Shown: one piece after another, positions 1,137 through 8,409 of the stretch
Numbering within the stretch: position 1 is the stretch's first letter
How the letters are laid out: the number at the start of each line of letters is the position of its first letter
Sequence record: LR597663
Source: Escherichia phage VpaE1_ev78
Reading direction: 5' to 3' (one strand)
Length of the DNA stretch: 64,000 nt
Translations under genes and position numbers: made by a program
The notes under the pieces: generated by a model
What the model saw: only the letters and a program-made list of their open reading frames with translations
What the model was told of the DNA's origin: nothing
Databases searched by the model: none

Positions 1137-2552
1137 ATGAGCGAATTATTTAAACATGCGCACCTTCATGCAGGTCGAACTGAAAATGGTGCTGTAAACC
1201 ATACTTCATCAATGTCTGCTCTTGTGGACTTTTATAAAGCTGCTGGTTCAAGCCGTAGCAATGTAGAAGTCTTACCAGACCTGTTCTACAAAGCTTTGCG
1301 TGAGGATGTTGATGTTGCAGTTCGTATTTTGCTTCATATGCGAGATGTACGAGAAGGTATGGGTGAGCGTAAAGCCTTCAGAACTGTTTTGCTTCAAGCG
1401 ATTGAAGACAAAGTTTTAGAGCCTGTACAGGTTCTTCGCATTATGGATAAGATTGCAGAACTTGGTCGTTTTGATGACTTCAAAATCTTCGTAGGTACTC
1501 GTTTCGAGACAGATGCCTTCAAACATTTAGAAGCAGCATTACTAGACCCTGCAACAGCAGGTTTGGCAGCCAAGTGGCTACCACGAGTCAAACCACGTCA
1601 TAAGCAGTTTGTAAAACGTTTCTGCAAGTTTGCCAACTTGAGTGAGAAAGAGTACCGCACACTGTTGTCTGCACTATCTGATACAGTTGAGCAAAAAATC
1701 TCTGCTAATGAGTTTGGTAAGATTGACTACAGTAAGATTCCTTCTCTTGCTGCTGCACGTTACCAAAAGCTGTTTAACCGTAAAGATGGAGAGCGTTACA
1801 AAGCTTACATCGAGTCCTTATCAAAGGGTGAGGCTAAGATTAATGCTGGTGCTGTTTACCCATACGATGTGATTAAATCTGTCAAGCATGGTAATGCAGA
1901 TGTTGCTAATGAGCAGTGGAAAGCACTACCAAACTGGATGGCAGAAGGTGAAAACATCTTATGTATGACTGATGTTTCAAGCTCAATGTCTTGGGTGAAT
2001 TTTGGCTCCATTACTGCTCTTGATATTGGTGTATCACTTGCCTTGTATGTAGCAGAACGCAATACAGGTTGCTTTAAGGATGAGTTGATGGTTTATTCAA
2101 CAAACCCTCACTTCATCGAACTGAGTGGTGATTTACGAAACCGTCATCGTCAGGTGATGCGACACGTTGAATATGGCTCAACCAACTTACAAGCAGCTTT
2201 TGACCGCATTCTTGAGATAGGTAAGAGAAACAACTTGACTCAGGAAGATATGCCAAGTAAGCTTATCATCTTCTCCGATATGGAGTTCAATCAGGTTGAT
2301 GGAGCTAACGGTCGTACAAACTTTGAAGCAATTCAGAGCAAGTACAAGAAAGCTGGATATGAGATGCCACAACTGGTATTCTGGTACTTAGCAAACCGTA
2401 ATGGTACTTGCGAAGTGTCTGTTAAGGATAACGGTGTAGCAATGGTATCTGGTTTCTCTCCAGCCACTTTAAAAGCTCTGCTTGGTGGTGAGAAGTTTGA
2501 CCCAATCAGCGTAATGCTCAAAGCAGTAATGATTGACCGCTATATCTGGTAA
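1137..2552 (+). CDS. vWA-domain protein with MIDAS motif and N-terminal helical domain (DUF2828-like / Ro60-like architecture)
   Basis: C-terminal half contains DxSxS (TDVSSSM), a conserved Thr (GSTNL) and Asp (FSDMEF) typical of vWA MIDAS; N-terminal 260 aa predicted helical; RBS GAGAAGAGAG upstream. Confidence 0.75.
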   Translation: MSELFKHAHLHAGRTENGAVNHTSSMSALVDFYKAAGSSRSNVEVLPDLFYKALREDVDVAVRILLHMRDVREGMGERKAFRTVLLQAIEDKVLEPVQVLRIMDKIAELGRFDDFKIFVGTRFETDAFKHLEAALLDPATAGLAAKWLPRVKPRHKQFVKRFCKFANLSEKEYRTLLSALSDTVEQKISANEFGKIDYSKIPSLAAARYQKLFNRKDGERYKAYIESLSKGEAKINAGAVYPYDVIKSVKHGNADVANEQWKALPNWMAEGENILCMTDVSSSMSWVNFGSITALDIGVSLALYVAERNTGCFKDELMVYSTNPHFIELSGDLRNRHRQVMRHVEYGSTNLQAAFDRILEIGKRNNLTQEDMPSKLIIFSDMEFNQVDGANGRTNFEAIQSKYKKAGYEMPQLVFWYLANRNGTCEVSVKDNGVAMVSGFSPATLKALLGGEKFDPISVMLKAVMIDRYIW

Positions 2553-2661: not shown

Positions 2662-2691
2662 TTGACAATCACTAAAAAATAATGTTAAAGT
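2662..2691 (+). promoter_or_regulatory. sigma70-like promoter upstream of tRNA array (TTGACA, 17-18 nt, TTAAAG/TAAAGT)
   Basis: Consensus -35, approximate -10, about 25 nt upstream of first tRNA. Confidence 0.5.
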
Positions 2692-2716: not shown

Positions 2717-2794
2717 TCTCTGTTTAGCTCAGCTTGGTAGAGCGTTCCGTTTGGGGCGGTAAGGCCGGAGGTTCAAGTCCTCCAACAGAGACCA
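2717..2794 (+). tRNA. tRNA-Pro (anticodon TGG)
   Basis: Hand-folded cloverleaf: 7-bp acceptor CTCTGTT/AACAGAG, D-loop AGCTTGGTAG, T-arm GGAGG-TTCAAGT-CCTCC, anticodon loop TTTGGGG, CCA encoded. Confidence 0.7.
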
Positions 2795-2801
2795 AATTAA
2801 T

Positions 2802-2879
2802 GTTCCAGTAGACAAAATGGTAAAGTCACCACTCTTTCAAAGTGGATATCTGAGGGTTCAAATCCCTTCTGGAACGCCA
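2802..2879 (+). tRNA. tRNA-Glu (anticodon TTC)
   Basis: Acceptor GTTCCAG/CTGGAAC, anticodon arm CCACT-CTTTCAA-AGTGG, T-loop TTCAAAT, CCA encoded. Confidence 0.7.
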
Positions 2880-2885
2880 GTTTTG

Positions 2886-2910
2886 ACAGAAGACCAATTG
2901 CAGCAAACTT
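2886..2910 (+). repeat. tRNA-spacer motif ACAGAAGACC-N5-CAGCAA, copy 1; followed about 60 nt later by GGTCTGG
   Basis: Motif recurs at about 3053, 3449 and 3535, partial copy near 6168. Confidence 0.6.
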
Positions 2911-2970
2911 AATCTTATTCATCTGAAGGTAAATCGGACAAAGAAGAGATTTGGTCTGGTCATTAAGAAT

Positions 2971-3047
2971 TGCGGGTATAGAGAAAGGGCGTCTCACATG
3001 TCTCATTAGCATGGTATCGGCAGGTTCGACTCCTGCACCCGCCTCCA
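2971..3047 (+). tRNA. tRNA with CAT anticodon (Met / initiator / Ile-lysidine type undetermined)
   Basis: T-arm GCAGG-TTCGACT-CCTGC, acceptor with 1:72 mismatch, anticodon stem built on palindromic CATG; position 37 appears to be T, which is atypical. Confidence 0.5.
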
Positions 3048-3052
3048 AATTT

Positions 3053-3077
3053 ACAGAAGACCGTTTACAGCAATATT
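3053..3077 (+). repeat. tRNA-spacer motif ACAGAAGACC-N5-CAGCAA, copy 2
   Basis: TTACAGAAGACCGTTTACAGCAA; GGTCTGG about 58 nt downstream. Confidence 0.6.
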
Positions 3078-3131
3078 TATTAAATTTTTAGCGGAAAAAA
3101 TTGAAAGATACGGTCTGGTAACACTAAACAT

Positions 3132-3208
3132 GGTTAGGAAGCACATAAGGTATGTGCGGTCGCCTGTTAAGCGAATGGCACAGGGTTCGAATCCCTGACT
3201 AACCGCCA
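3132..3208 (+). tRNA. tRNA-Asn (anticodon GTT)
   Basis: Acceptor GGTTAGG/ACTAACC, anticodon loop CTGTTAA, T-arm CAGGG-TTCGAAT-CCCTG, CCA encoded. Confidence 0.7.
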
Positions 3209-3217
3209 AATTTAAAT

Positions 3218-3305
3218 GTGTCGTTATCCCGTAGATGGTAGCGGTGGGGACTGTAAATCCCTTGTCATTGAGACTCGGTAGGTTCGACTCCTACACGGCA
3301 CACCA
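3218..3305 (+). tRNA. tRNA-Tyr (anticodon GTA), long variable arm
   Basis: 88 nt; acceptor GTGTCGT/ACGGCAC, anticodon arm GGGGA-CTGTAAA-TCCCT, T-loop TTCGACT. Confidence 0.7.
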
Positions 3306-3310
3306 ATAAA

Positions 3311-3388
3311 GGTTATGTAGTTTAATTTGGTTAAAATACTCCCCTGTCACGGGAGATGATGAGGGTTCAAATCCCTTCGTAACCGCCA
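3311..3388 (+). tRNA. tRNA-Asp (anticodon GTC)
   Basis: Acceptor GGTTATG/CGTAACC, anticodon arm CTCCC-CTGTCAC-GGGAG, T-loop TTCAAAT. Confidence 0.7.
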
Positions 3389-3448
3389 ATTTTGAGAGGG
3401 CTATTTAGCCCCTCCCTTAAAGAGTTCTTACGAGTATTCTTTAAAGGA

Positions 3449-3472
3449 GCAGAAGACCAAATACAGCAAGTT
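3449..3472 (+). repeat. tRNA-spacer motif, copy 3 (GCAGAAGACCAAATACAGCAA)
   Basis: Same motif family; GGTCTGG about 67 nt downstream. Confidence 0.55.
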
Positions 3473-3534
3473 ATTTAAAATTTCAAGCCAATTTAATTTT
3501 GAAAAATTTAAAACTTGGTCTGGCTCAACAAATT

Positions 3535-3560
3535 TACAGAAGACCGTTTACAGCAAAACT
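3535..3560 (+). repeat. tRNA-spacer motif, copy 4 (TTACAGAAGACCGTTTACAGCAA)
   Basis: Identical core to copy 2. Confidence 0.6.
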
Positions 3561-3591
3561 TAACAATCTATTTCTCCGGTAAAGAAAAGGC

Positions 3592-3626
3592 GAAGGTTCG
3601 ATTCCTTCACTCGGCAGATGTCGAGT
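3592..3626 (+). ncRNA. tRNA-like minihelix: canonical T-arm (GAAGG-TTCGATT-CCTTC) directly followed by a 7-bp acceptor-like hairpin (ACTCGGC-AGAT-GTCGAGT); no D or anticodon arm found
   Basis: T-loop consensus present but no complementary 5-prime acceptor strand within 120 nt upstream; complementary strand lies immediately downstream. Confidence 0.4.
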
Positions 3627-3668
3627 TGGTGTAATGGTAGTACTTAAGATGATAAACAACGGTCTGGT

Positions 3669-3688
3669 AATTATCTTTGTAGATAAGT
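3669..3688 (+). repeat. hairpin element TTATCT-TTGT-AGATAA preceded by GGTCTGG
   Basis: Second copy with inverted loop (TTATCT-ACAA-AGATAA) at about 3795-3810; the two flank roughly 105 nt. Confidence 0.55.
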
Positions 3689-3792
3689 TATTAAGCTTAC
3701 CTGTGAGTATGCGACCACAAAGGGTGAAAGGGTAAATTCTAGATTTAAACCCAAAAAGGCACATCGCTACAGACCTTAAGCAAGTCTGGGTA

Positions 3793-3812
3793 GCTTATCT
3801 ACAAAGATAATT
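3793..3812 (+). repeat. hairpin element TTATCT-ACAA-AGATAA, second copy, preceded by GTCTGGG
   Basis: Reverse complement of the copy at 3669-3688. Confidence 0.55.
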
Positions 3813-3816
3813 TAAT

Positions 3817-3892
3817 GGAAGTGTAGCAGAATGGTGATGCGGCAGACTTTTAATCTGACAGGCGATGGGTTCGAATCCCTCCACTTCTACCA
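3817..3892 (+). tRNA. tRNA-Lys (anticodon TTT)
   Basis: Acceptor GGAAGTG/CACTTCT, anticodon loop CTTTTAA, T-loop TTCGAAT; two outer T-stem mismatches. Confidence 0.6.
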
Positions 3893-3896
3893 ATAT

Positions 3897-3973
3897 GGTT
3901 CAGTCGCAGATAAGGTAATGCAAGGGTCTCATAAGCCCTATGAATGTGGGTTCGATTCCCATCTGAACCTCCA
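3897..3973 (+). tRNA. tRNA-Met (anticodon CAT)
   Basis: Acceptor GGTTCAG/CTGAACC, anticodon arm AGGGT-CTCATAA-GCCCT, T-loop TTCGATT, CCA encoded. Confidence 0.65.
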
Positions 3974-3974
3974 A

Positions 3975-4050
3975 GCTGGTATAGTTAAGAAGGTTATAAC
4001 ACTCCCCTGATAAGGGAACATCGGTGGTTCGATTCCACCTACCAGTACCA
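3975..4050 (+). tRNA. tRNA-Ile (anticodon GAT)
   Basis: Acceptor GCTGGTA/TACCAGT, anticodon loop CTGATAA, T-arm GGTGG-TTCGATT-CCACC. Confidence 0.65.
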
Positions 4051-4065
4051 ATTTCAATAAAGTTG

Positions 4066-4094
4066 TTGACATTGAGATGTGACTACTTTATAGT
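4066..4094 (+). promoter_or_regulatory. sigma70-like promoter (TTGACA, 17 nt, TATAGT)
   Basis: Near-consensus hexamers with 17-nt spacer inside the tRNA array. Confidence 0.6.
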
Positions 4095-4298
4095 AACCTT
4101 AGTTTTCGTTGCGTAGCGTCTATTTTGCAAATTTAAAATAAATGCAAACGACAATGTTTTTCTGGCAGTAGCTTGATAGGCTAAACACCAGTGAGGTCTT
4201 CCAATCCCTCATCAAAGAATTTGGCGTACTCGCCCACGGTATGATTAATAAGGTGGGCATCTTTAAGGGCTTTCTAAGAGAGTCTTTAAAGATAATTA

Positions 4299-4380
4299 CG
4301 GGGCGTATCTCAGCGGTCTTCTAAACCGCCGTTAACCGAGTAAGTGGAGTATGCGGGTTCGAGTCCTGCCGCCTCGACCA
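4299..4380 (+). tRNA. atypical tRNA-like gene (82 nt): acceptor and T-arm canonical, anticodon-like hairpin with loop CTTCTAA (TCT, Arg-like), no recognisable D-arm, 23-nt extra region
   Basis: Acceptor CGGGGCG/CGCCTCG, T-arm GCGGG-TTCGAGT-CCTGC, CCA encoded; the only strong internal hairpin is GCGGT-CTTCTAA-ACCGC right after positions 8-9. Confidence 0.45.
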
Positions 4381-4394
4381 ATTTTGGAGAAATC

Positions 4395-4742
4395 ATGAAA
4401 ACTTGTATTAGGTGCAAACTTAGCAAGGATGAAAATGATTTCTACATGAAAGATGGTAGGAGAACTCATTCATACTGTAAAAAGTGTGTTAATGAGCAAA
4501 CCATAGAAAGACAAAGAGCACTTAAACTCTCAGCTATTGAGTACAAAGGTGGGGTTTGTCACGATTGTGGTAAAAAGTATCATCCAGCAGTGTATGACTT
4601 CCATCATTTGAATCCTTCAGAGAAAGATTTTAACATTGGTCATAGGAAAAGCCTTAAGTTCTCTCAAGAACTAAAAGATGAACTTGACAAATGTGTTTTG
4701 CTATGTTCAAATTGCCATAGGGTAAGACATGCAAAGTATTAG
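4395..4742 (+). CDS. HNH homing endonuclease
   Basis: Motif DFHHLNPSEKDF...CVLLCSNCHRVRH; ORF-track start lies inside the upstream tRNA, so trimmed to ATG at 4395 (RBS GGAGA). Confidence 0.8.
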   Translation: MKTCIRCKLSKDENDFYMKDGRRTHSYCKKCVNEQTIERQRALKLSAIEYKGGVCHDCGKKYHPAVYDFHHLNPSEKDFNIGHRKSLKFSQELKDELDKCVLLCSNCHRVRHAKY

Positions 4743-4885
4743 TTAGCAGATTACTTAGACGACCTAAGCGGGTCTTCCTGTAGGGAGGTGGTCTGTATCT
4801 CATGTTTTCCAGAACATGTAAATAATCTGAGAAGAAGCTTGACAGTGTTGAGATAACAGGGTAAGCTTCGAATTATAGTTTTAAT

Positions 4886-4956
4886 AGGGGTGAGCTATGG
4901 CAGCAATAGAGTCTCCAAAATTCTTGATTAGAGTTCGAATCTCTACACCCCTGCCA
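4886..4956 (+). tRNA. tRNA-Trp (anticodon CCA), short with reduced D-arm
   Basis: Acceptor AGGGGTG/CACCCCT, anticodon arm AGAGT-CTCCAAA-ATTCT, T-arm TAGAG-TTCGAAT-CTCTA; about 71 nt. Confidence 0.55.
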
Positions 4957-4970
4957 GAACAGGTGCTTGT

Positions 4971-5375
4971 ATGAAACTTTGTAGAAAATGTTCTCAAGAA
5001 AAGCCTTTAAGCTGCTTTCATAAAAGAGGTAATGGCTATCAGTCTGCTTGCAAAGATTGTAAAGCTAAGTACTCAGCAAAGAGATACAAAGAAGACCCTA
5101 CTTATAAAGCAAAAAGAAAAGTTAGGGCAAAATATGACAAAAAGAGGAACAGAGAGTTCCTTAGTAGATATAAAAAGTTTTGCAAATGCAGAATATGTGG
5201 CGAATCTGAGCCAGTAGCTTTGGATTTTCATCACTTAGACCCTAAAGAGAAAGATTTTGCTCCAAGCAATCTTAAAACTTACTCTAGGGGCACTATTAAG
5301 CGTGAAGTCCGTAAGTGTGTTGTGCTTTGTTCAAACTGTCATAGGAAAGTTCATGAAGGACTGTTAAGTATTTAA
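4971..5375 (+). CDS. HNH homing endonuclease (paralogue of 4395..4742)
   Basis: Motif DFHHLDPKEKDF...CVVLCSNCHRKVH; RBS AGGTG. Confidence 0.8.
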   Translation: MKLCRKCSQEKPLSCFHKRGNGYQSACKDCKAKYSAKRYKEDPTYKAKRKVRAKYDKKRNREFLSRYKKFCKCRICGESEPVALDFHHLDPKEKDFAPSNLKTYSRGTIKREVRKCVVLCSNCHRKVHEGLLSI

Positions 5376-5388
5376 CAGTCTTATTAGG

Positions 5389-5476
5389 GGTAGGTAGCGG
5401 CTAATGGTAGCCAAACTGTCTTGAAAACAGTTGCCACTGTAGAGATACGGTGAGGGTTCGACTCCTTTACTTACCG
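5389..5476 (+). tRNA. tRNA-Ser (anticodon TGA), long variable arm
   Basis: Acceptor GGTAGGT/ACTTACC, anticodon arm ACTGT-CTTGAAA-ACAGT, T-loop TTCGACT; CCA not encoded. Confidence 0.65.
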
Positions 5477-5633
5477 CCTAATAAGATTTAAAGCCAAGCT
5501 TCATTCGGATGTTGCTTTGGTATCCCGCGTGTATTGTTGTACACACTGATAAAGCACCTAGTAGGTGTCACGGAGAAGAGATAATATCAAGCTCTCCAAA
5601 GGTTCTAGTCACCGGATTAAACAAGACTATGCA

Positions 5634-5654
5634 AAGACCTTTTTAGGTCTTTTT
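5634..5654 (+). terminator. possible intrinsic terminator or processing hairpin (AAGACC-TTTTTA-GGTCTT plus TTTT)
   Basis: Short hairpin followed by T-run inside the tRNA array. Confidence 0.3.
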
Positions 5655-5733
5655 AGAGGGCTTCTAAGGTTATTACAGCTTGTTGTGGAACCTTGTTGCT
5701 TAGGTTCTTAGAAGTTCTCTAAAAAGATTTAAT

Positions 5734-5811
5734 GGGAGATTGACGGTAATTGGTAAACCTATCTCGCTTAGAACGAGATGTTTGAGGGTTCGAATCCCTT
5801 GTCTCCTACCA
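5734..5811 (+). tRNA. tRNA with TAG anticodon (nominally Leu) but type-I short variable arm
   Basis: Acceptor GGGAGAT/GTCTCCT, anticodon arm TCTCG-CTTAGAA-CGAGA, T-arm GAGGG-TTCGAAT-CCCTT; variable region about 5 nt. Confidence 0.55.
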
Positions 5812-5818
5812 AATTAAT

Positions 5819-5894
5819 GCAGGTGTAGCAAAATGGTTATGCGGCTGACTCTTAATCAGTAAGACGATGGGTTCAATTCCCTCCACCTGTACCA
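5819..5894 (+). tRNA. tRNA-Lys (anticodon CTT)
   Basis: Acceptor GCAGGTG/CACCTGT, anticodon loop CTCTTAA, T-loop TTCAATT; similar to the 3817 tRNA. Confidence 0.6.
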
Positions 5895-5899
5895 AAAAT

Positions 5900-5975
5900 G
5901 GGGTCATAGTTTATATGGTTAAAATTCGAGTTTTGCAAACTTGGGAACTGAGTTCAATTCTCAGTGACTCCACCA
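5900..5975 (+). tRNA. tRNA-Ala (anticodon TGC)
   Basis: Acceptor GGGGTCA/TGACTCC, anticodon arm CGAGT-TTTGCAA-ACTTG, T-arm CTGAG-TTCAATT-CTCAG. Confidence 0.65.
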
Positions 5976-5981
5976 ATTAGT

Positions 5982-6056
5982 GCATCCATAGTTTAAACGG
6001 GAAAATTACAGTCTTCCAAACTGAGGTTGAGGGTTCGATTCCCTCTGGATGCTCCA
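5982..6056 (+). tRNA. tRNA-Gly (anticodon TCC)
   Basis: Acceptor GCATCCA/TGGATGC, anticodon loop CTTCCAA, T-arm GAGGG-TTCGATT-CCCTC. Confidence 0.65.
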
Positions 6057-6063
6057 AATTAAT

Positions 6064-6139
6064 GCTCCTATCGTATAATTGGCTATTACGGTTGCCTTGT
6101 AAGTAACTTATCAGGGTTCGAATCCTTGTGGGAGCACCA
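6064..6139 (+). tRNA. tRNA-Thr (anticodon TGT)
   Basis: Acceptor GCTCCTA/TGGGAGC, anticodon arm GTTGC-CTTGTAA-GTAAC, T-loop TTCGAAT. Confidence 0.65.
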
Positions 6140-6236
6140 ATTTAGAGGTCAAGTGAAAGACCGCTTTGAGTCAACTGAAGACCGTAACAAATTCCACGGA
6201 GTTGAGTTAGCGGCACAACTCCAGACCTCTTCTCAC

Positions 6237-6311
6237 ACTCGCTTAGTTTATATGGTAAAACACCACCCTTACAAGATGAAGAAAAAGGTTCAAGTCCTTT
6301 AGTGAGTACCA
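6237..6311 (+). tRNA. tRNA, probably Val (anticodon TAC); weak anticodon stem
   Basis: Acceptor ACTCGCT/AGTGAGT, T-arm AAAGG-TTCAAGT-CCTTT, anticodon loop CTTACAA with two stem mismatches. Confidence 0.45.
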
Positions 6312-6312
6312 T

Positions 6313-6390
6313 GTTCCAGTATCCCAATTGGCAGAGGATGCAAGCTCAAACCTTGTACTAGTGATGGTTCGAATCCATCTTGGAACACCA
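6313..6390 (+). tRNA. tRNA with CAA anticodon (nominally Leu) but type-I short variable arm
   Basis: Acceptor GTTCCAG/TTGGAAC, anticodon arm GCAAG-CTCAAAC-CTTGT, T-arm GATGG-TTCGAAT-CCATC. Confidence 0.5.
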
Positions 6391-6395
6391 ATTTT

Positions 6396-6471
6396 GCAGG
6401 ATTAGTTCAAATGGATAGAGCAACAGTCTACGAAGCTGTTAATAGGGGTTCAAATCCCTTATCCTGCGCCA
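6396..6471 (+). tRNA. tRNA-Arg (anticodon ACG)
   Basis: Acceptor GCAGGAT/ATCCTGC, anticodon arm ACAGT-CTACGAA-GCTGT, T-loop TTCAAAT. Confidence 0.65.
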
Positions 6472-6490
6472 ATTTAAAGAGGCTATTTAG

Positions 6491-7048
6491 ATGAGATATT
6501 TGAAGTATGCTTCATGGATTTTCTTAGCTTTGTTAGAACCATTTGCAGCAATCTTAGCAGTTATCTTAGCACCTTTTGTAGTTCCATTCTACAGTGAGAA
6601 GAAAGGACACTTACCTTTCGGGTTCAGATGGATGGAGACATATGACAACCCAATTGATGGTGATGAAGGTCACGTTAAAAGATGGGCTAATATTAGATGG
6701 ATTGGTAAACTAGGTGTCTACATGCAAAGAGTCGGATGGCTCTGGAGAAACAAAGCTTATAACTTCTCTTACCATGTGTTAGGAAGAGATGTAAAAGATG
6801 TTACTAAGTGGAAAGGTAATATCAACGTAAGTTCTAACCCTGAAGATAATCAGACAGGTTATCTCCTAATGTGGAACAGTAATGCTTGGGGATTATTCGC
6901 TTTTACCCCATCAATTAAAATCTTTGGTAAACAGTTTTACTGGAGAATTTATATTGGGTGGAAGCTAAAAAGTGTTGTCCCAGAAGAAAGAGCATTCTCA
7001 AGGGAAAGAGTTATGTTGGCATTCTTTATTCATCCACTAAGAAAGTAA
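6491..7048 (+). CDS. Trp-rich membrane protein of unknown function (185 aa) inside the tRNA array
   Basis: RBS AAAGAGG; hydrophobic N-terminal segment WIFLALLEPFAAILAVILAPFVVPF; many Trp residues. Confidence 0.65.
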   Translation: MRYLKYASWIFLALLEPFAAILAVILAPFVVPFYSEKKGHLPFGFRWMETYDNPIDGDEGHVKRWANIRWIGKLGVYMQRVGWLWRNKAYNFSYHVLGRDVKDVTKWKGNINVSSNPEDNQTGYLLMWNSNAWGLFAFTPSIKIFGKQFYWRIYIGWKLKSVVPEERAFSRERVMLAFFIHPLRK

Positions 7049-7056
7049 AGATTTAA

Positions 7057-7132
7057 AGGGGATTAGTTTACAAGGTTAAAACCTCGGTCTTTGAAATCGA
7101 AGAAGTTGGTTCAATTCCAACATCCCCCGCCA
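7057..7132 (+). tRNA. tRNA-Gln (anticodon TTG)
   Basis: Acceptor AGGGGAT/ATCCCCC with 1:72 mismatch, anticodon loop CTTTGAA, T-arm GTTGG-TTCAATT-CCAAC. Confidence 0.6.
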
Positions 7133-7134
7133 AT

Positions 7135-7213
7135 GCTCCATTACTCCAATTGGCAGAGAGGCCAGACTTAAAATCTGTGTTATGTATCGGTTCGAATCCG
7201 ATATGGAGTACCA
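7135..7213 (+). tRNA. tRNA with TAA anticodon (nominally Leu) but type-I variable arm (about 7 nt)
   Basis: Acceptor GCTCCAT/ATGGAGT, anticodon loop CTTAAAA, T-arm ATCGG-TTCGAAT-CCGAT. Confidence 0.5.
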
Positions 7214-7218
7214 AATTT

Positions 7219-7294
7219 AGCGGTATAGCATAACTGGCAATGCAGCAGCCTCTGAAGCTGTCCTATTAAGGTTCAAATCCTTATGCCGCTGCCA
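7219..7294 (+). tRNA. tRNA-Gln (anticodon CTG)
   Basis: Acceptor AGCGGTA/TGCCGCT, anticodon arm GCAGC-CTCTGAA-GCTGT, T-arm TAAGG-TTCAAAT-CCTTA. Confidence 0.6.
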
Positions 7295-7325
7295 CTTCTA
7301 AGGATTCTTACGAGAGTCCTTAAAT

Positions 7326-7401
7326 GTGGCCTTATCATAAATGGTAATGACCCATGCTGTGAACATGGTCTATACGGGTTCAAATCCCGTAGGTCACCCC
7401 A
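7326..7401 (+). tRNA. tRNA-His (anticodon GTG)
   Basis: Acceptor GTGGCCT/AGGTCAC, perfect anticodon arm CCATG-CTGTGAA-CATGG, T-arm ACGGG-TTCAAAT-CCCGT. Confidence 0.7.
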
Positions 7402-7406
7402 ATTTA

Positions 7407-7481
7407 TAGTCCAAGTAGCTTATATGGTTAAAGCGCGTGTCTGAAAAACATGAGAAGAGGGTTCAAATCCCACTGGACTAC
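7407..7481 (+). tRNA. tRNA-Phe (anticodon GAA)
   Basis: Acceptor TAGTCCA/TGGACTA, anticodon arm CGTGT-CTGAAAA-ACATG, T-loop TTCAAAT; CCA not fully encoded. Confidence 0.6.
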
Positions 7482-7499
7482 CAATTTCAAAGGTGCTTA

Positions 7500-8234
7500 A
7501 TGAAAGAGATGACAGAACAAGGTAAGGAGATTTTTAATCTCTTAAAAACCGGTAAAGGGTTCTCTAACCCACTTATTACTGGTGCAGCAGTTCTCGGTGG
7601 AACCGTAGCTGCTTCTACATCACTTGTAAGCTCTATTAGTTCTGTAACAGACCCTACAATGAAGGAGAAACTTGTTGCTGCTGGACTTACAACAGTCCTT
7701 CTAAACAGCTTTACAACAAGCCTTACAAGCACTACAGCAACTACTAAAACTCTGACAGACTACGGTCAAAAGTCTATTGATGAGTTTTCATCACGTATGC
7801 AGGTAGCAAAGGGGTATTCCAATGTTATGGGTGCAGCAGGAGAACAAGTTGGTTGTACACCATTCAGTGGTATCATGGGTGTTGCTACAGAGTATGGTCA
7901 AAAAGCTATTGACATGATGAACAGTACACTAGATAGTGTTAATGGTGTGTTAAGTGACTTGCAAGATGCTATTGATAAGGGTCTTGATACTGTTTCTGAT
8001 TTAGCTAATCAGGCTGTTAGTAAGATTAATGAAGGTATTTCAAAGATTACAGCTTATGCAGATGAAGTTGTGCAGATGATTGAAGAAGAAGCTGCCCTTA
8101 TTGCAGAGTACCTTAAAACGAATATCAATGGGTTCTTAGCAGGTATCTTACCAGACTGGTTTGATGATGCCTGTAAAACTGGTGTGATTGACACTATTGC
8201 AACACCAGAAATGAAGAGCGCATTACAGAAATAA
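7500..8234 (+). CDS. hypothetical Ser/Thr/Ala-rich protein (244 aa) inside the tRNA array
   Basis: ORF-track start overlaps tRNA-Phe; trimmed to in-frame ATG at 7500; low-complexity T/S/A/G-rich middle. Confidence 0.5.
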   Translation: MKEMTEQGKEIFNLLKTGKGFSNPLITGAAVLGGTVAASTSLVSSISSVTDPTMKEKLVAAGLTTVLLNSFTTSLTSTTATTKTLTDYGQKSIDEFSSRMQVAKGYSNVMGAAGEQVGCTPFSGIMGVATEYGQKAIDMMNSTLDSVNGVLSDLQDAIDKGLDTVSDLANQAVSKINEGISKITAYADEVVQMIEEEAALIAEYLKTNINGFLAGILPDWFDDACKTGVIDTIATPEMKSALQK

Positions 8235-8236
8235 AT

Positions 8237-8329
8237 GGAAGATTAACCCTAAAAGGTAAGGGAGCAGTTTGCTAAACTGCCAGTAGCTGAGAAATCGGTG
8301 TACCAGTTCAAGTCTGGTATCTTCCTCCA
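8237..8329 (+). tRNA. tRNA-Ser (anticodon GCT), long variable arm
   Basis: 93 nt; acceptor GGAAGAT/ATCTTCC, anticodon arm GCAGT-TTGCTAA-ACTGC, T-arm ACCAG-TTCAAGT-CTGGT; starts 3 nt after upstream stop. Confidence 0.7.
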
Positions 8330-8333
8330 ATTT

Positions 8334-8409
8334 GAATCCGTGACAGAAATGGCTATGTGCCTGTCTGCAAAACAGGTTTATAAGGGTTCGAGTCCCTTCG
8401 GATTCTCCA
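8334..8409 (+). tRNA. tRNA-Cys (anticodon GCA)
   Basis: Acceptor GAATCCG/CGGATTC, anticodon arm CCTGT-CTGCAAA-ACAGG, T-arm AAGGG-TTCGAGT-CCCTT. Confidence 0.7.

Follow-up and report, generated by a model that had tools for sequence, protein, structure and literature searches.

Y RNAs of the YrlA type are bound by Ro60/Rsr and carry pseudouridine 55 and dihydrouridine, made by TruB/DusA. YrlA consists of V, T, acceptor-like and D stem-loops enclosed by Ro60-binding ends; in more than 250 bacteria and 22 phages its gene shares the strand of the Ro60 gene and lies no more than 4 kb away (Chen et al. 2014, PMC4201824). In Mycobacterium smegmatis, RNase P cleaves YrlA and CCA is added to it, and mycobacteriophages with a Ro-like protein were reported to carry YrlA RNAs (PMC4201824). 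A crystal structure of YrlA has been described; UA joins the acceptor-like stem to the D stem, the last variable-loop position is a pyrimidine, and RNAs of this type are thought to be derived from dimeric transfer RNA (tRNA) transcripts (bioRxiv 10.1101/312249). In phage Bas63 (Felixounavirus) the protein gp130, Ro60-like by structure comparison, counters the ppl defence; its gene adjoins the tRNA genes of that phage, upstream of them, and Y RNAs were guessed to be among the annotated tRNAs, the RNAs themselves not being identified (bioRxiv 10.1101/2024.10.10.617714). Here we describe an element of Escherichia phage VpaE1_ev78, a T-arm followed by a closed acceptor-like stem-loop (AS), at positions 3592-3626 of a 64,000-nucleotide stretch of sequence record LR597663, which as a whole is called the window. 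It is probably the tRNA-like domain of a phage Y-RNA-like non-coding RNA of the YrlA type, designated module M4 (~3541-3667, + strand).

The window phage is Felix O1-like (Felixounavirus), an enterobacterial myovirus; phages of this kind are classic typing and therapy phages of Salmonella and E. coli. It has 26 tRNA genes on the + strand, from 2718 to 8409 (ARAGORN), and the element sits in a 428-nt gap without tRNA genes (3389-3816), flanked by tRNA-Asp and tRNA-Lys. No real annotation was found for this gap in any related record examined. The genes adjoining the element are all on the + strand.

Structure and conservation of the tRNA-like element

Module M4 is closed by an 8-bp stem (P1) and contains a hairpin at the variable-arm position, the T-arm, the AS and, after a two-base linker, a D-arm (Table 1). 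The T-arm and the minihelix had been picked out by an earlier sequence-only reading of the window, and its coordinates are exact: the complement GUCGAGU lies 4 nt downstream of the 3' acceptor strand, and the helix has 7 bp, of which one is a G-U pair. The same reading held that both D and anticodon arms are absent; the anticodon loop is indeed missing, but a D-arm follows directly after position 3626. This D-arm has A14, G18, G19 and A21, and the acceptor pairs of the AS are G1-C72, U2-G71 and C3-G70. All elbow nucleotides of the YrlA type are present (T-loop UUCRA, two D-loop G, A14, A21 and U8) and show no variation among 16 orthologues. The anticodon loop alone is lacking, and at that place M4 opens toward the closing stem. 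With a loop closing off its acceptor stem and an open anticodon side, the element is a circularly permuted tRNA cloverleaf; of the earlier suggestion of a permuted tRNA remnant, the topology stands and "remnant" does not. The hairpin at the variable-arm position is the weakest part of the M4 model.

One site in the window, both strands considered, combines a perfect 5-bp stem, a TTCRANN loop and an abutting 7-bp hairpin. In 200 dinucleotide-preserving shuffles the mean number of such sites was 0.025, with any site at all in 5 of the 200, and the T-arm/minihelix is real and non-random. The minimum free energy fold of 3537-3670, a check that had been proposed with the original observation, retains T-arm and minihelix as well as the closing stem. 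ARAGORN found no tRNA in 3389-3816, and the Rfam tRNA model gave a weak partial match at 3560-3609 (22 bits, with a gathering score of 29), in which the T-arm positions agree.

A stretch of 451 bases around the element matched 251 phage records of the genera Felixounavirus, Mooglevirus and Suspvirus, mostly at 95-99% identity, and the permuted arrangement is kept across them. For the covariation analysis, 16 distinct orthologous sequences from the three genera were aligned by homology (alignment A3). The T-arm is invariant in all 16, the D-arm is near-invariant and the closing stem essentially so. The AS helix occurs in three compensatory versions in the three genera (ACUCGGC/GUCGAGU, ACACGUU/GGCGUGU and ACCCUUC/GAAGGGU): three of its seven pairs are double-changed, in 20 cells, 99% of the cells are paired, and the covariation score was reached by none of the column shuffles. 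The variable-arm hairpin is retained in Felixounavirus, Suspvirus and some Mooglevirus, with a different hairpin in the Michonne/Moogle group. An intact tRNA was found at the homologous gap in none of nine related loci from the three genera. The comparison with related genomes, which the sequence-only reading had called for, came out in favour of conserved hairpins and not of a tRNA gene at the site.

The Ro60-like gene and the module family

Directly upstream of the tRNA cluster lies a gene for a Ro60-like protein of 471 aa (open reading frame (ORF) 1137-2552). The ORF matches the Pfam families DUF2828 (6e-30) and DUF7788 (5e-44), VWA_2 weakly, and PHROG 850, described as 'RNA-binding protein'. 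An AlphaFold2 model made from 38 homologues had a predicted local distance difference test score of 88 and a predicted template modelling (TM) score of 0.88. When this model was compared with the PDB using Foldseek, the best 12 matches were all Ro60 structures (Xenopus, human, Deinococcus Rsr and Thermus phage phiLo), over the full length, with E-values of 1e-8 to 1e-6 and TM scores of 0.37-0.66; after a gap there followed matches to the vWA domain only, with E > 2e-3. The ORF is accordingly predicted to fold like Ro60. The MIDAS residues DxSxS, T and D are invariant in a protein alignment (A2). With tblastn the protein was found in 709 phage records, among them the mycobacteriophage 'Ro-like RNA binding protein', which is homologous to it (31-34% identity, E down to 1e-77; 34% and E 1e-72 in one comparison). 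M4 starts 989 nt past the stop of the ORF on the same strand, within the ~4 kb of a Ro60 orthologue that is used as a criterion for YrlA, the protein in this case being assigned by fold and not by TROVE.

The tRNA-like element does not stand alone. A 20-nt motif, CAGAAGACCnnnUnCAGCAA, which includes the 5' part of the closing stem, occurs in four zero-mismatch copies in the window, at 2887, 3054, 3450 and 3537, each in a tRNA-free gap. Each copy pairs with nnnGGUCUGG 57-123 nt downstream, resulting in four stem-closed modules (M1 to M4, Table 1), of which M1 to M3 are simple and M4 alone carries the tRNA-like domain. The interior of M3 is AU-rich and differs by indels of 1-3 nt among phages, which excludes a coding function.

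Modules of the same design were searched for in 77 distant loci (1.3 Mb) of other phages, the protein being 39-56% identical. A looser scan, for any [CT]AGCAA with a 7-bp stem, gave too much noise (372 vs 239); the strict definition put in its place requires a G-stem, 1-4 nt, CAGCAA and a partner strand whose last base is C, with a G no more than two bases further on. The strict scan recovers M1 to M4 in the window. At the distant loci it gave 128 modules on the strand of the gene versus 18 on the opposite strand; 56 modules lie no more than 500 nt from the gene, and in 53 of the 77 loci one or more are found within 1.5 kb of it. The 125 unique distant modules have 98 distinct stems and a median length of 67 nt, and share the frame A-G...(U)U(A/U)CAGCAA...C-U-G, with a 5' stem of 6-9 bp and a 3' UGN. 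A T-arm, a closed AS of 6-8 bp, a linker of two bases, in most cases UA or UG, and a D-arm are combined in 13 distinct modules at nine of the 77 loci, or 14 sequences at 10 loci when a duplicate is counted (L118 being a copy of L117). One further tRNA-like module, with a bulged T-stem, was read by eye in locus L078. In many of the distant phages no tRNA gene adjoins the module.

A covariance model (R1) was trained on the 13 distant tRNA-like cores only, with no Ounavirinae sequence among them. The acceptor loops were trimmed to equal length, as the untrimmed MAFFT alignment had misplaced the 3' strand of the AS, so the loop lengths in R1 are artificial. The best match of R1 in the window was 3587-3644 (52.1 bits, E ~1e-13), full length and with the AS helix intact, the T-arm and D-arm of the window being aligned to the arms of the model itself. 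The training members score 42.4-65.5 bits, and the next matches in the window, at most 31.8 bits, are tRNA-tRNA junctions in which the AS helix is skipped. An RNA of Mycobacterium phage Kingsolomon, 130 nt downstream of the Ro-like gene, scored 56.9 bits with R1 and 37.9 bits with the Rfam YrlA model, i.e. under its gathering score of 69; the locus has three consecutive modules of the form GGACnnn-nn-CAGCAA...nnnGUCC-AG. For the metagenomic relatives the Rfam YrlA model gave significant matches that likewise remained sub-threshold (24.7-38.9 bits, E down to 5e-5). Because these relatives, including the Kingsolomon RNA, fall below the gathering score, the Rfam YrlA model under-detects the phage branch, and the results with R1 and with Kingsolomon place the element of the window in this phage branch of YrlA-like RNAs.

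The coordinates of M4, of its parts and of the other features of the region are given in Table 1. The number of promoter-like sites in the region does not exceed the shuffle expectation, and the two sites ahead of the first tRNA gene are for this reason only plausible starts of a transcript with tRNAs and modules. The structured domain that begins right after M4 may be in the same transcript; its 19-bp helix and its inner hairpin covary between phage groups.

Table 1. Features of the window discussed in the text
Feature	Position	Strand	Description
Gene for 471-aa Ro60-like protein	1137-2552	+	HEAT-repeat ring (predicted) and vWA domain with MIDAS motif; next to the tRNA cluster, upstream
Two sigma-70-like promoter matches	2571-2599 and 2662-2691	+	Past the Ro60-like gene, ahead of the first tRNA; consensus scan, 10/12 each
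Module M1	2891-2959	+	Stem AGACCAA/UUGGUCU; motif UUGCAGCAA; 3' tail GG; without tRNA-like domain
Module M2	3058-3118	+	Stem AGACCGU/ACGGUCU; motif UUACAGCAA; 3' tail GG
Module M3	3454-3523	+	Stem AGACCAA/UUGGUCU; motif AUACAGCAA; 3' tail GG
Module M4, probable YrlA-like RNA holding the element	3541-3667	+	Closing stem P1 AGACCGUU (3541-3548) / AACGGUCU (3658-3665); motif UACAGCAA (3549-3556); 3' tail GG (3666-3667)
Hairpin at variable-arm position of M4	3571-3587	+	UUUCU / CCGGUAA / AGAAA; read from sequence
T-arm of M4	3592-3608	+	GAAGG / UUCGAUU / CCUUC; stem G3592-G3596 / C3604-C3608, loop 3597-3603
AS of M4	3609-3626	+	ACUCGGC 3609-3615, loop AGAU 3616-3619, GUCGAGU 3620-3626
U8-G9 linker and D-arm of M4	3627-3643	+	U3627 G3628, then GUGU / AAUGGUA / GUAC 3629-3643
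Structured domain after M4	3669-3812	+	19-bp helix 3669-3687/3794-3812 around ~105 nt; inner hairpin 3767-3793, loop CUUAAGCAA

Several further observations were made on the modules and on the tRNA cluster. The inner hairpin of domain 3669-3812 is a miniature of the stem+UUACAGCAA unit, and the interior of the domain occurs in two unrelated sequence versions inside Felixounavirus. In Vibrio phage phi-pp2 (L039, 9965-10000), UUUUACAGCAA precedes the start codon of the Ro60-like gene by ~20 nt, a hint that this gene may regulate itself; in the window, unlike in phi-pp2, no CAGCAA motif was found upstream of ORF 1137. Metagenomic phage contig L060 (8605-9054) has a Ro60-like protein, two YrlA-like modules and a full-length gene for transfer-messenger RNA (tmRNA; 75 bits, above threshold). 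Within the cluster of the window, 4299-4377 matched the Rfam tRNA model with 31.7 bits (gathering score 29) and was not called by ARAGORN; it is overlapped by the HNH-endonuclease-like ORF 4344-4742 and may be a disrupted or atypical tRNA. This ORF and ORF 4971-5375 are small and have weak HNH endonuclease matches, and insertions of HNH genes at other points of the cluster distinguish related phages. The Rfam models of permuted tmRNA and tmRNA gave sub-threshold scores of 29.2 and 16 bits, respectively, at 3992-4297, in and after tRNA-Ile, and another of the gaps without tRNA genes holds a strong promoter-like site at 4066-4094 (TTGACA-17-TATAGT). In Salmonella phage Si3 (L001, 233-309) the tRNA-Asp homologue has a 4-base anticodon, gtca, according to ARAGORN, and is flagged as a pseudo-tRNA in the record. 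A group I intron or permuted intron-exon arrangement in the gap was dropped as a candidate, with zero Rfam intron matches.

Weighing of the readings and proposed mechanism

The structure of the element, the degree to which it is conserved and its linkage in the genome to a gene of predicted Ro60 fold carry the assignment of M4 to the YrlA type. Among the explanations raised by the sequence-only reading, a tRNA-mimicking Y-RNA-like module is the one that agrees with the arm order of YrlA, with a Ro60-like gene 1 kb upstream on the same strand and with the R1 match. The proposed Infernal searches gave a divided answer, the Rfam models being sub-threshold (tRNA) or silent (YrlA) on the element and R1 recognising it.

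A number of points weigh against this assignment. The Rfam YrlA model (RF02553, gathering score 69 bits) gave no match on 3389-3816 at E <= 10, and the fold energy of 3537-3670 is unexceptional (z = -1.3). The YrlA-defining motif GNCGAAN0-1G is absent from 3389-3600, M4 having UACAGCAA in the equivalent place; the mycobacteriophage relative likewise has CAGCAA beside its stem. The linker of M4 is UG as opposed to the UA conserved in YrlA; Felixounavirus and Suspvirus have this UG, and the Michonne/Moogle group has UA. The Levitt pair has been lost, A15 standing opposite C or A at position 48, and the final variable-loop base is C in the window and A in several orthologues. Both the variable-arm hairpin and a short 4-bp anticodon-like helix are lost in Mooglevirus of the Michonne/Moogle group. 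On the side of the protein, ORF 1137-2552 has no Pfam TROVE match, only DUF2828/DUF7788, and a phmmer search of it against the PDB gave zero sequence-level matches. Finally, the family members were picked by scripts that demand pairing, so that pairing across the family is partly by construction; the asymmetry in strand and position, the covariation among orthologues and the match to an independent model are free of this bias.

Another explanation, without any tie to the Ro60-like protein, is that the element serves as tRNA-like punctuation for RNase P/RNase Z-type processing, or that it draws away, as a decoy, a host enzyme that binds tRNA or a defence nuclease. It lies within a cluster of 26 tRNA genes, and its acceptor/T stack of 7+5 bp has the length of that in a tRNA; the M. 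smegmatis YrlA is RNase P-cut and CCA-tailed. The acceptor loop of the window is plain AGAU with no encoded CCA; in five of 18 lineages N-CCA is found inside this loop at the exact tRNA positions 73-76 (P ~7e-6). Such loops occur in Mooglevirus loci L003, L008 and L009 (GCCA) and also in L078, L079 and L116. Punctuation or a decoy leaves unexplained that the closing stem with CAGCAA is also found in modules without a tRNA-like part, and that modules cluster by the Ro60-like gene, on its strand, in unrelated phages and often with no adjoining tRNA gene. We regard punctuation or a decoy as unlikely; an involvement of RNase P or a CCA-adding enzyme, raised in the sequence-only reading, is possible.

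A decayed tRNA or a non-functional leftover of a tRNA-tRNA junction had also been put forward in the sequence-only reading. The weak Rfam tRNA match at 3560-3609 and the thought that YrlA-type RNAs descended from dimeric tRNA transcripts would agree with it. Decay is contradicted by the invariant T- and D-arms and by the compensatory AS in Felixounavirus, Mooglevirus and Suspvirus, by the permuted order kept in 251 records, by the same design in phages whose Ro-like proteins are just 30-45% identical, and by the lack of an intact tRNA at the site in any relative examined in the three genera; it is very improbable.

An equally poor prospect is a genuine permuted or split tRNA gene that is rearranged into a decoding tRNA. 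The permuted tRNA genes of Cyanidioschyzon merolae yield decoding tRNA and two-piece tmRNA genes yield alanylated tmRNA, and in both, as in M4, the 3' acceptor strand comes before the 5' strand; M4, unlike those, is without an anticodon loop, G3:U70 and a tag ORF. The 3' half does precede the 5' half, hairpin 3571-3587 has a 7-nt loop in the window, and tRNA-Arg(UCU) is missing from the cluster. This hairpin, on the other hand, is in the variable-arm position, its loop has 6 or 7 nt with C at 33, and a different hairpin replaces it in Mooglevirus; the junction lacks an anticodon arm, and family members show just an A-rich internal loop there. To our knowledge, bacteria have no circularising tRNA splicing pathway.

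A two-piece (permuted) tmRNA, with the element as its tRNA-like domain, deserves almost no credence. Permuted ssrA genes also put the T-arm and 3' acceptor strand ahead of the 5' strand, and weak tmRNA-type matches are found nearby, at 3992-4297; the element itself has zero Rfam tmRNA match, has C3-G70 and hence no G3:U70, possesses a 4-bp D stem, which tmRNA lacks, and has no CCA encoded in the window phage. An apparent open frame at 3460-3565, considered as a tmRNA tag ORF, was excluded by indels of 1-3 nt among the orthologues. A minus-strand feature, either an intrinsic terminator (hairpin 3610-3590 with a T-rich run) or the 76-aa ORF 3534-3764, has a negligible probability: a terminator-like match exists and the ORF is annotated as hypothetical in some records, but the neighbouring genes are all on the + strand, the ORF is broken in seven of the eight relatives checked (longest stop-free stretch 41-61 codons) and intact only in the near-identical Si3 (81 codons), and the compensatory changes maintain RNA pairing, not a peptide.

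For M4 as a Y-RNA-like RNA, the following mechanism is proposed. The modules would be transcribed together with the tRNAs and freed by tRNA-processing nucleases. In M4, the T-arm, the closed 7-bp acceptor-like hairpin and the D-arm would form a tRNA elbow, with an internal loop carrying UACAGCAA on the anticodon side, closed by the 8-bp stem. The Ro60-like protein may bind at the closing stem together with the CAGCAA loop, which would correspond to the helix bound by Ro60 and the GNCGAA motif in bacterial Y RNAs, and the elbow presented by M4 may recruit, or compete for, a tRNA-binding factor such as a nuclease, a modification enzyme or a defence protein. Because the acceptor-like stem of M4 has the 7 bp of a tRNA and stacks on a T-stem of 5 bp, RNase P may cut in the AGAU loop, as it does in the M. 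smegmatis YrlA, and the position of N-CCA in five of the 18 lineages hints at cleavage to a tRNA-like CCA end in some members of the family. From transcription, release, binding and elbow presentation of this kind, we infer a ribonucleoprotein that could act in RNA surveillance or counter-defence during infection.

If the assignment is right, four candidate Y-like RNAs, one of them with a complete tRNA elbow, are located as candidate partners of a Ro60-like anti-defence protein, for which such partners were earlier only guessed. The signature of stem and CAGCAA provides a simple handle for annotation near this gene across hundreds of phage genomes, extending to T4-like Vibrio and Aeromonas phages, mycobacteriophages and phages of Listeria, Staphylococcus and Campylobacter. 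With the current Rfam models, RNAs of the phage branch are missed or sub-threshold. The modules also constitute exact targets for experiments in a tractable phage system.

Comparison with known systems

One likeness is to the Class I RNAs of Dictyostelium, which are 42-65 nt long, have a conserved G at the 5' end, a box of 11 nt and CUGU at the 3' end, were reported to be unique to Dictyostelia, and have the RRM protein Rnp1A as their known direct binder (PMC7919456). Class I RNAs (RF01414) and M1 to M3 with their relatives have in common a 5' G stem, (C)CUUACAGCAA beside its 5' strand, a variable interior, a 3' stem C followed by UG(U), and ~60 nt; in the simple modules 2891-2959, 3058-3118 and 3454-3523 the box resembling that of Class I RNAs is (C)UUACAGCAA. 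The Rfam Class I consensus (5' G-stem, CCUUACAGCAA, 3' stem-C-UG) and that of the phage modules coincide at motif level only. The Rfam Class I model gave weak scores of 16.6 bits at 3455-3522 of the window and of 30.8 and 27.9 bits in L060 (gathering score 41.5), and no match at E <= 1 in another 66 kb comprising five more phage loci. It is conceivable, though we think it rather unlikely, that modules of stem, UUACAGCAA and CUG tail represent the ancestral binding unit of the DUF2828 Ro60-like branch, present in more than 700 phage genomes, and that Class I RNAs, in which the 11-nt box is likewise CCUUACAGCAA, are their eukaryotic counterpart. If true, a DUF2828/Ro60-like protein would have Class I RNAs as partners of the Y-RNA-like kind, the uncharacterised DDB_G0281243, which was pulled down with DdR-21, being one possibility, and an orphan class of developmental non-coding RNA would be tied to Ro60 ribonucleoproteins and phages. 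No other paper naming DDB_G0281243 was found.

Thermus phage phiLo (PMC12135203) and the window both combine a phage protein of Ro60 fold, predicted in the case of the window, with adjacent Y-RNA-like RNAs, and the phiLo structures 9kop and 9l5y are among the top Foldseek matches. In the part of that report available to us, Yrl1 and Yrl2 of phiLo have a stem-bulge-stem with a CGAA motif and lie upstream of the gene, and a tRNA-like domain is not reported. Bas63 gp130 and ORF 1137-2552 belong to the same genus and occupy the same position upstream of the tRNAs; judging from the description in the paper, gp130 is presumably the orthologue. In the Bas63 study the Y RNAs were suspected among the annotated tRNAs, whereas the candidates of the window are in tRNA-free gaps.

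YrlA itself is a close counterpart. The candidate protein partner of M4 is of the DUF2828/DUF7788 branch, that of YrlA is Pfam TROVE, and M4, unlike YrlA, is embedded in a cluster of 26 tRNAs of an enterobacterial myovirus. The Kingsolomon RNA and M4 have the same layout of stem and CAGCAA and a similar R1 score. YrlA of Salmonella Typhimurium, M. smegmatis and mycobacteriophages (RF02553) and M4 have the same order of V, T, closed AS and D within a stem formed by the ends, and the acceptor stem has 7 bp in both M4 and the M. smegmatis RNA. Both YrlA and M4 are found near a same-strand gene of Ro60 type and are accompanied by simpler, YrlB-like sister RNAs, M1 to M3 beside M4 paralleling the YrlA/YrlB pairs of bacteria.

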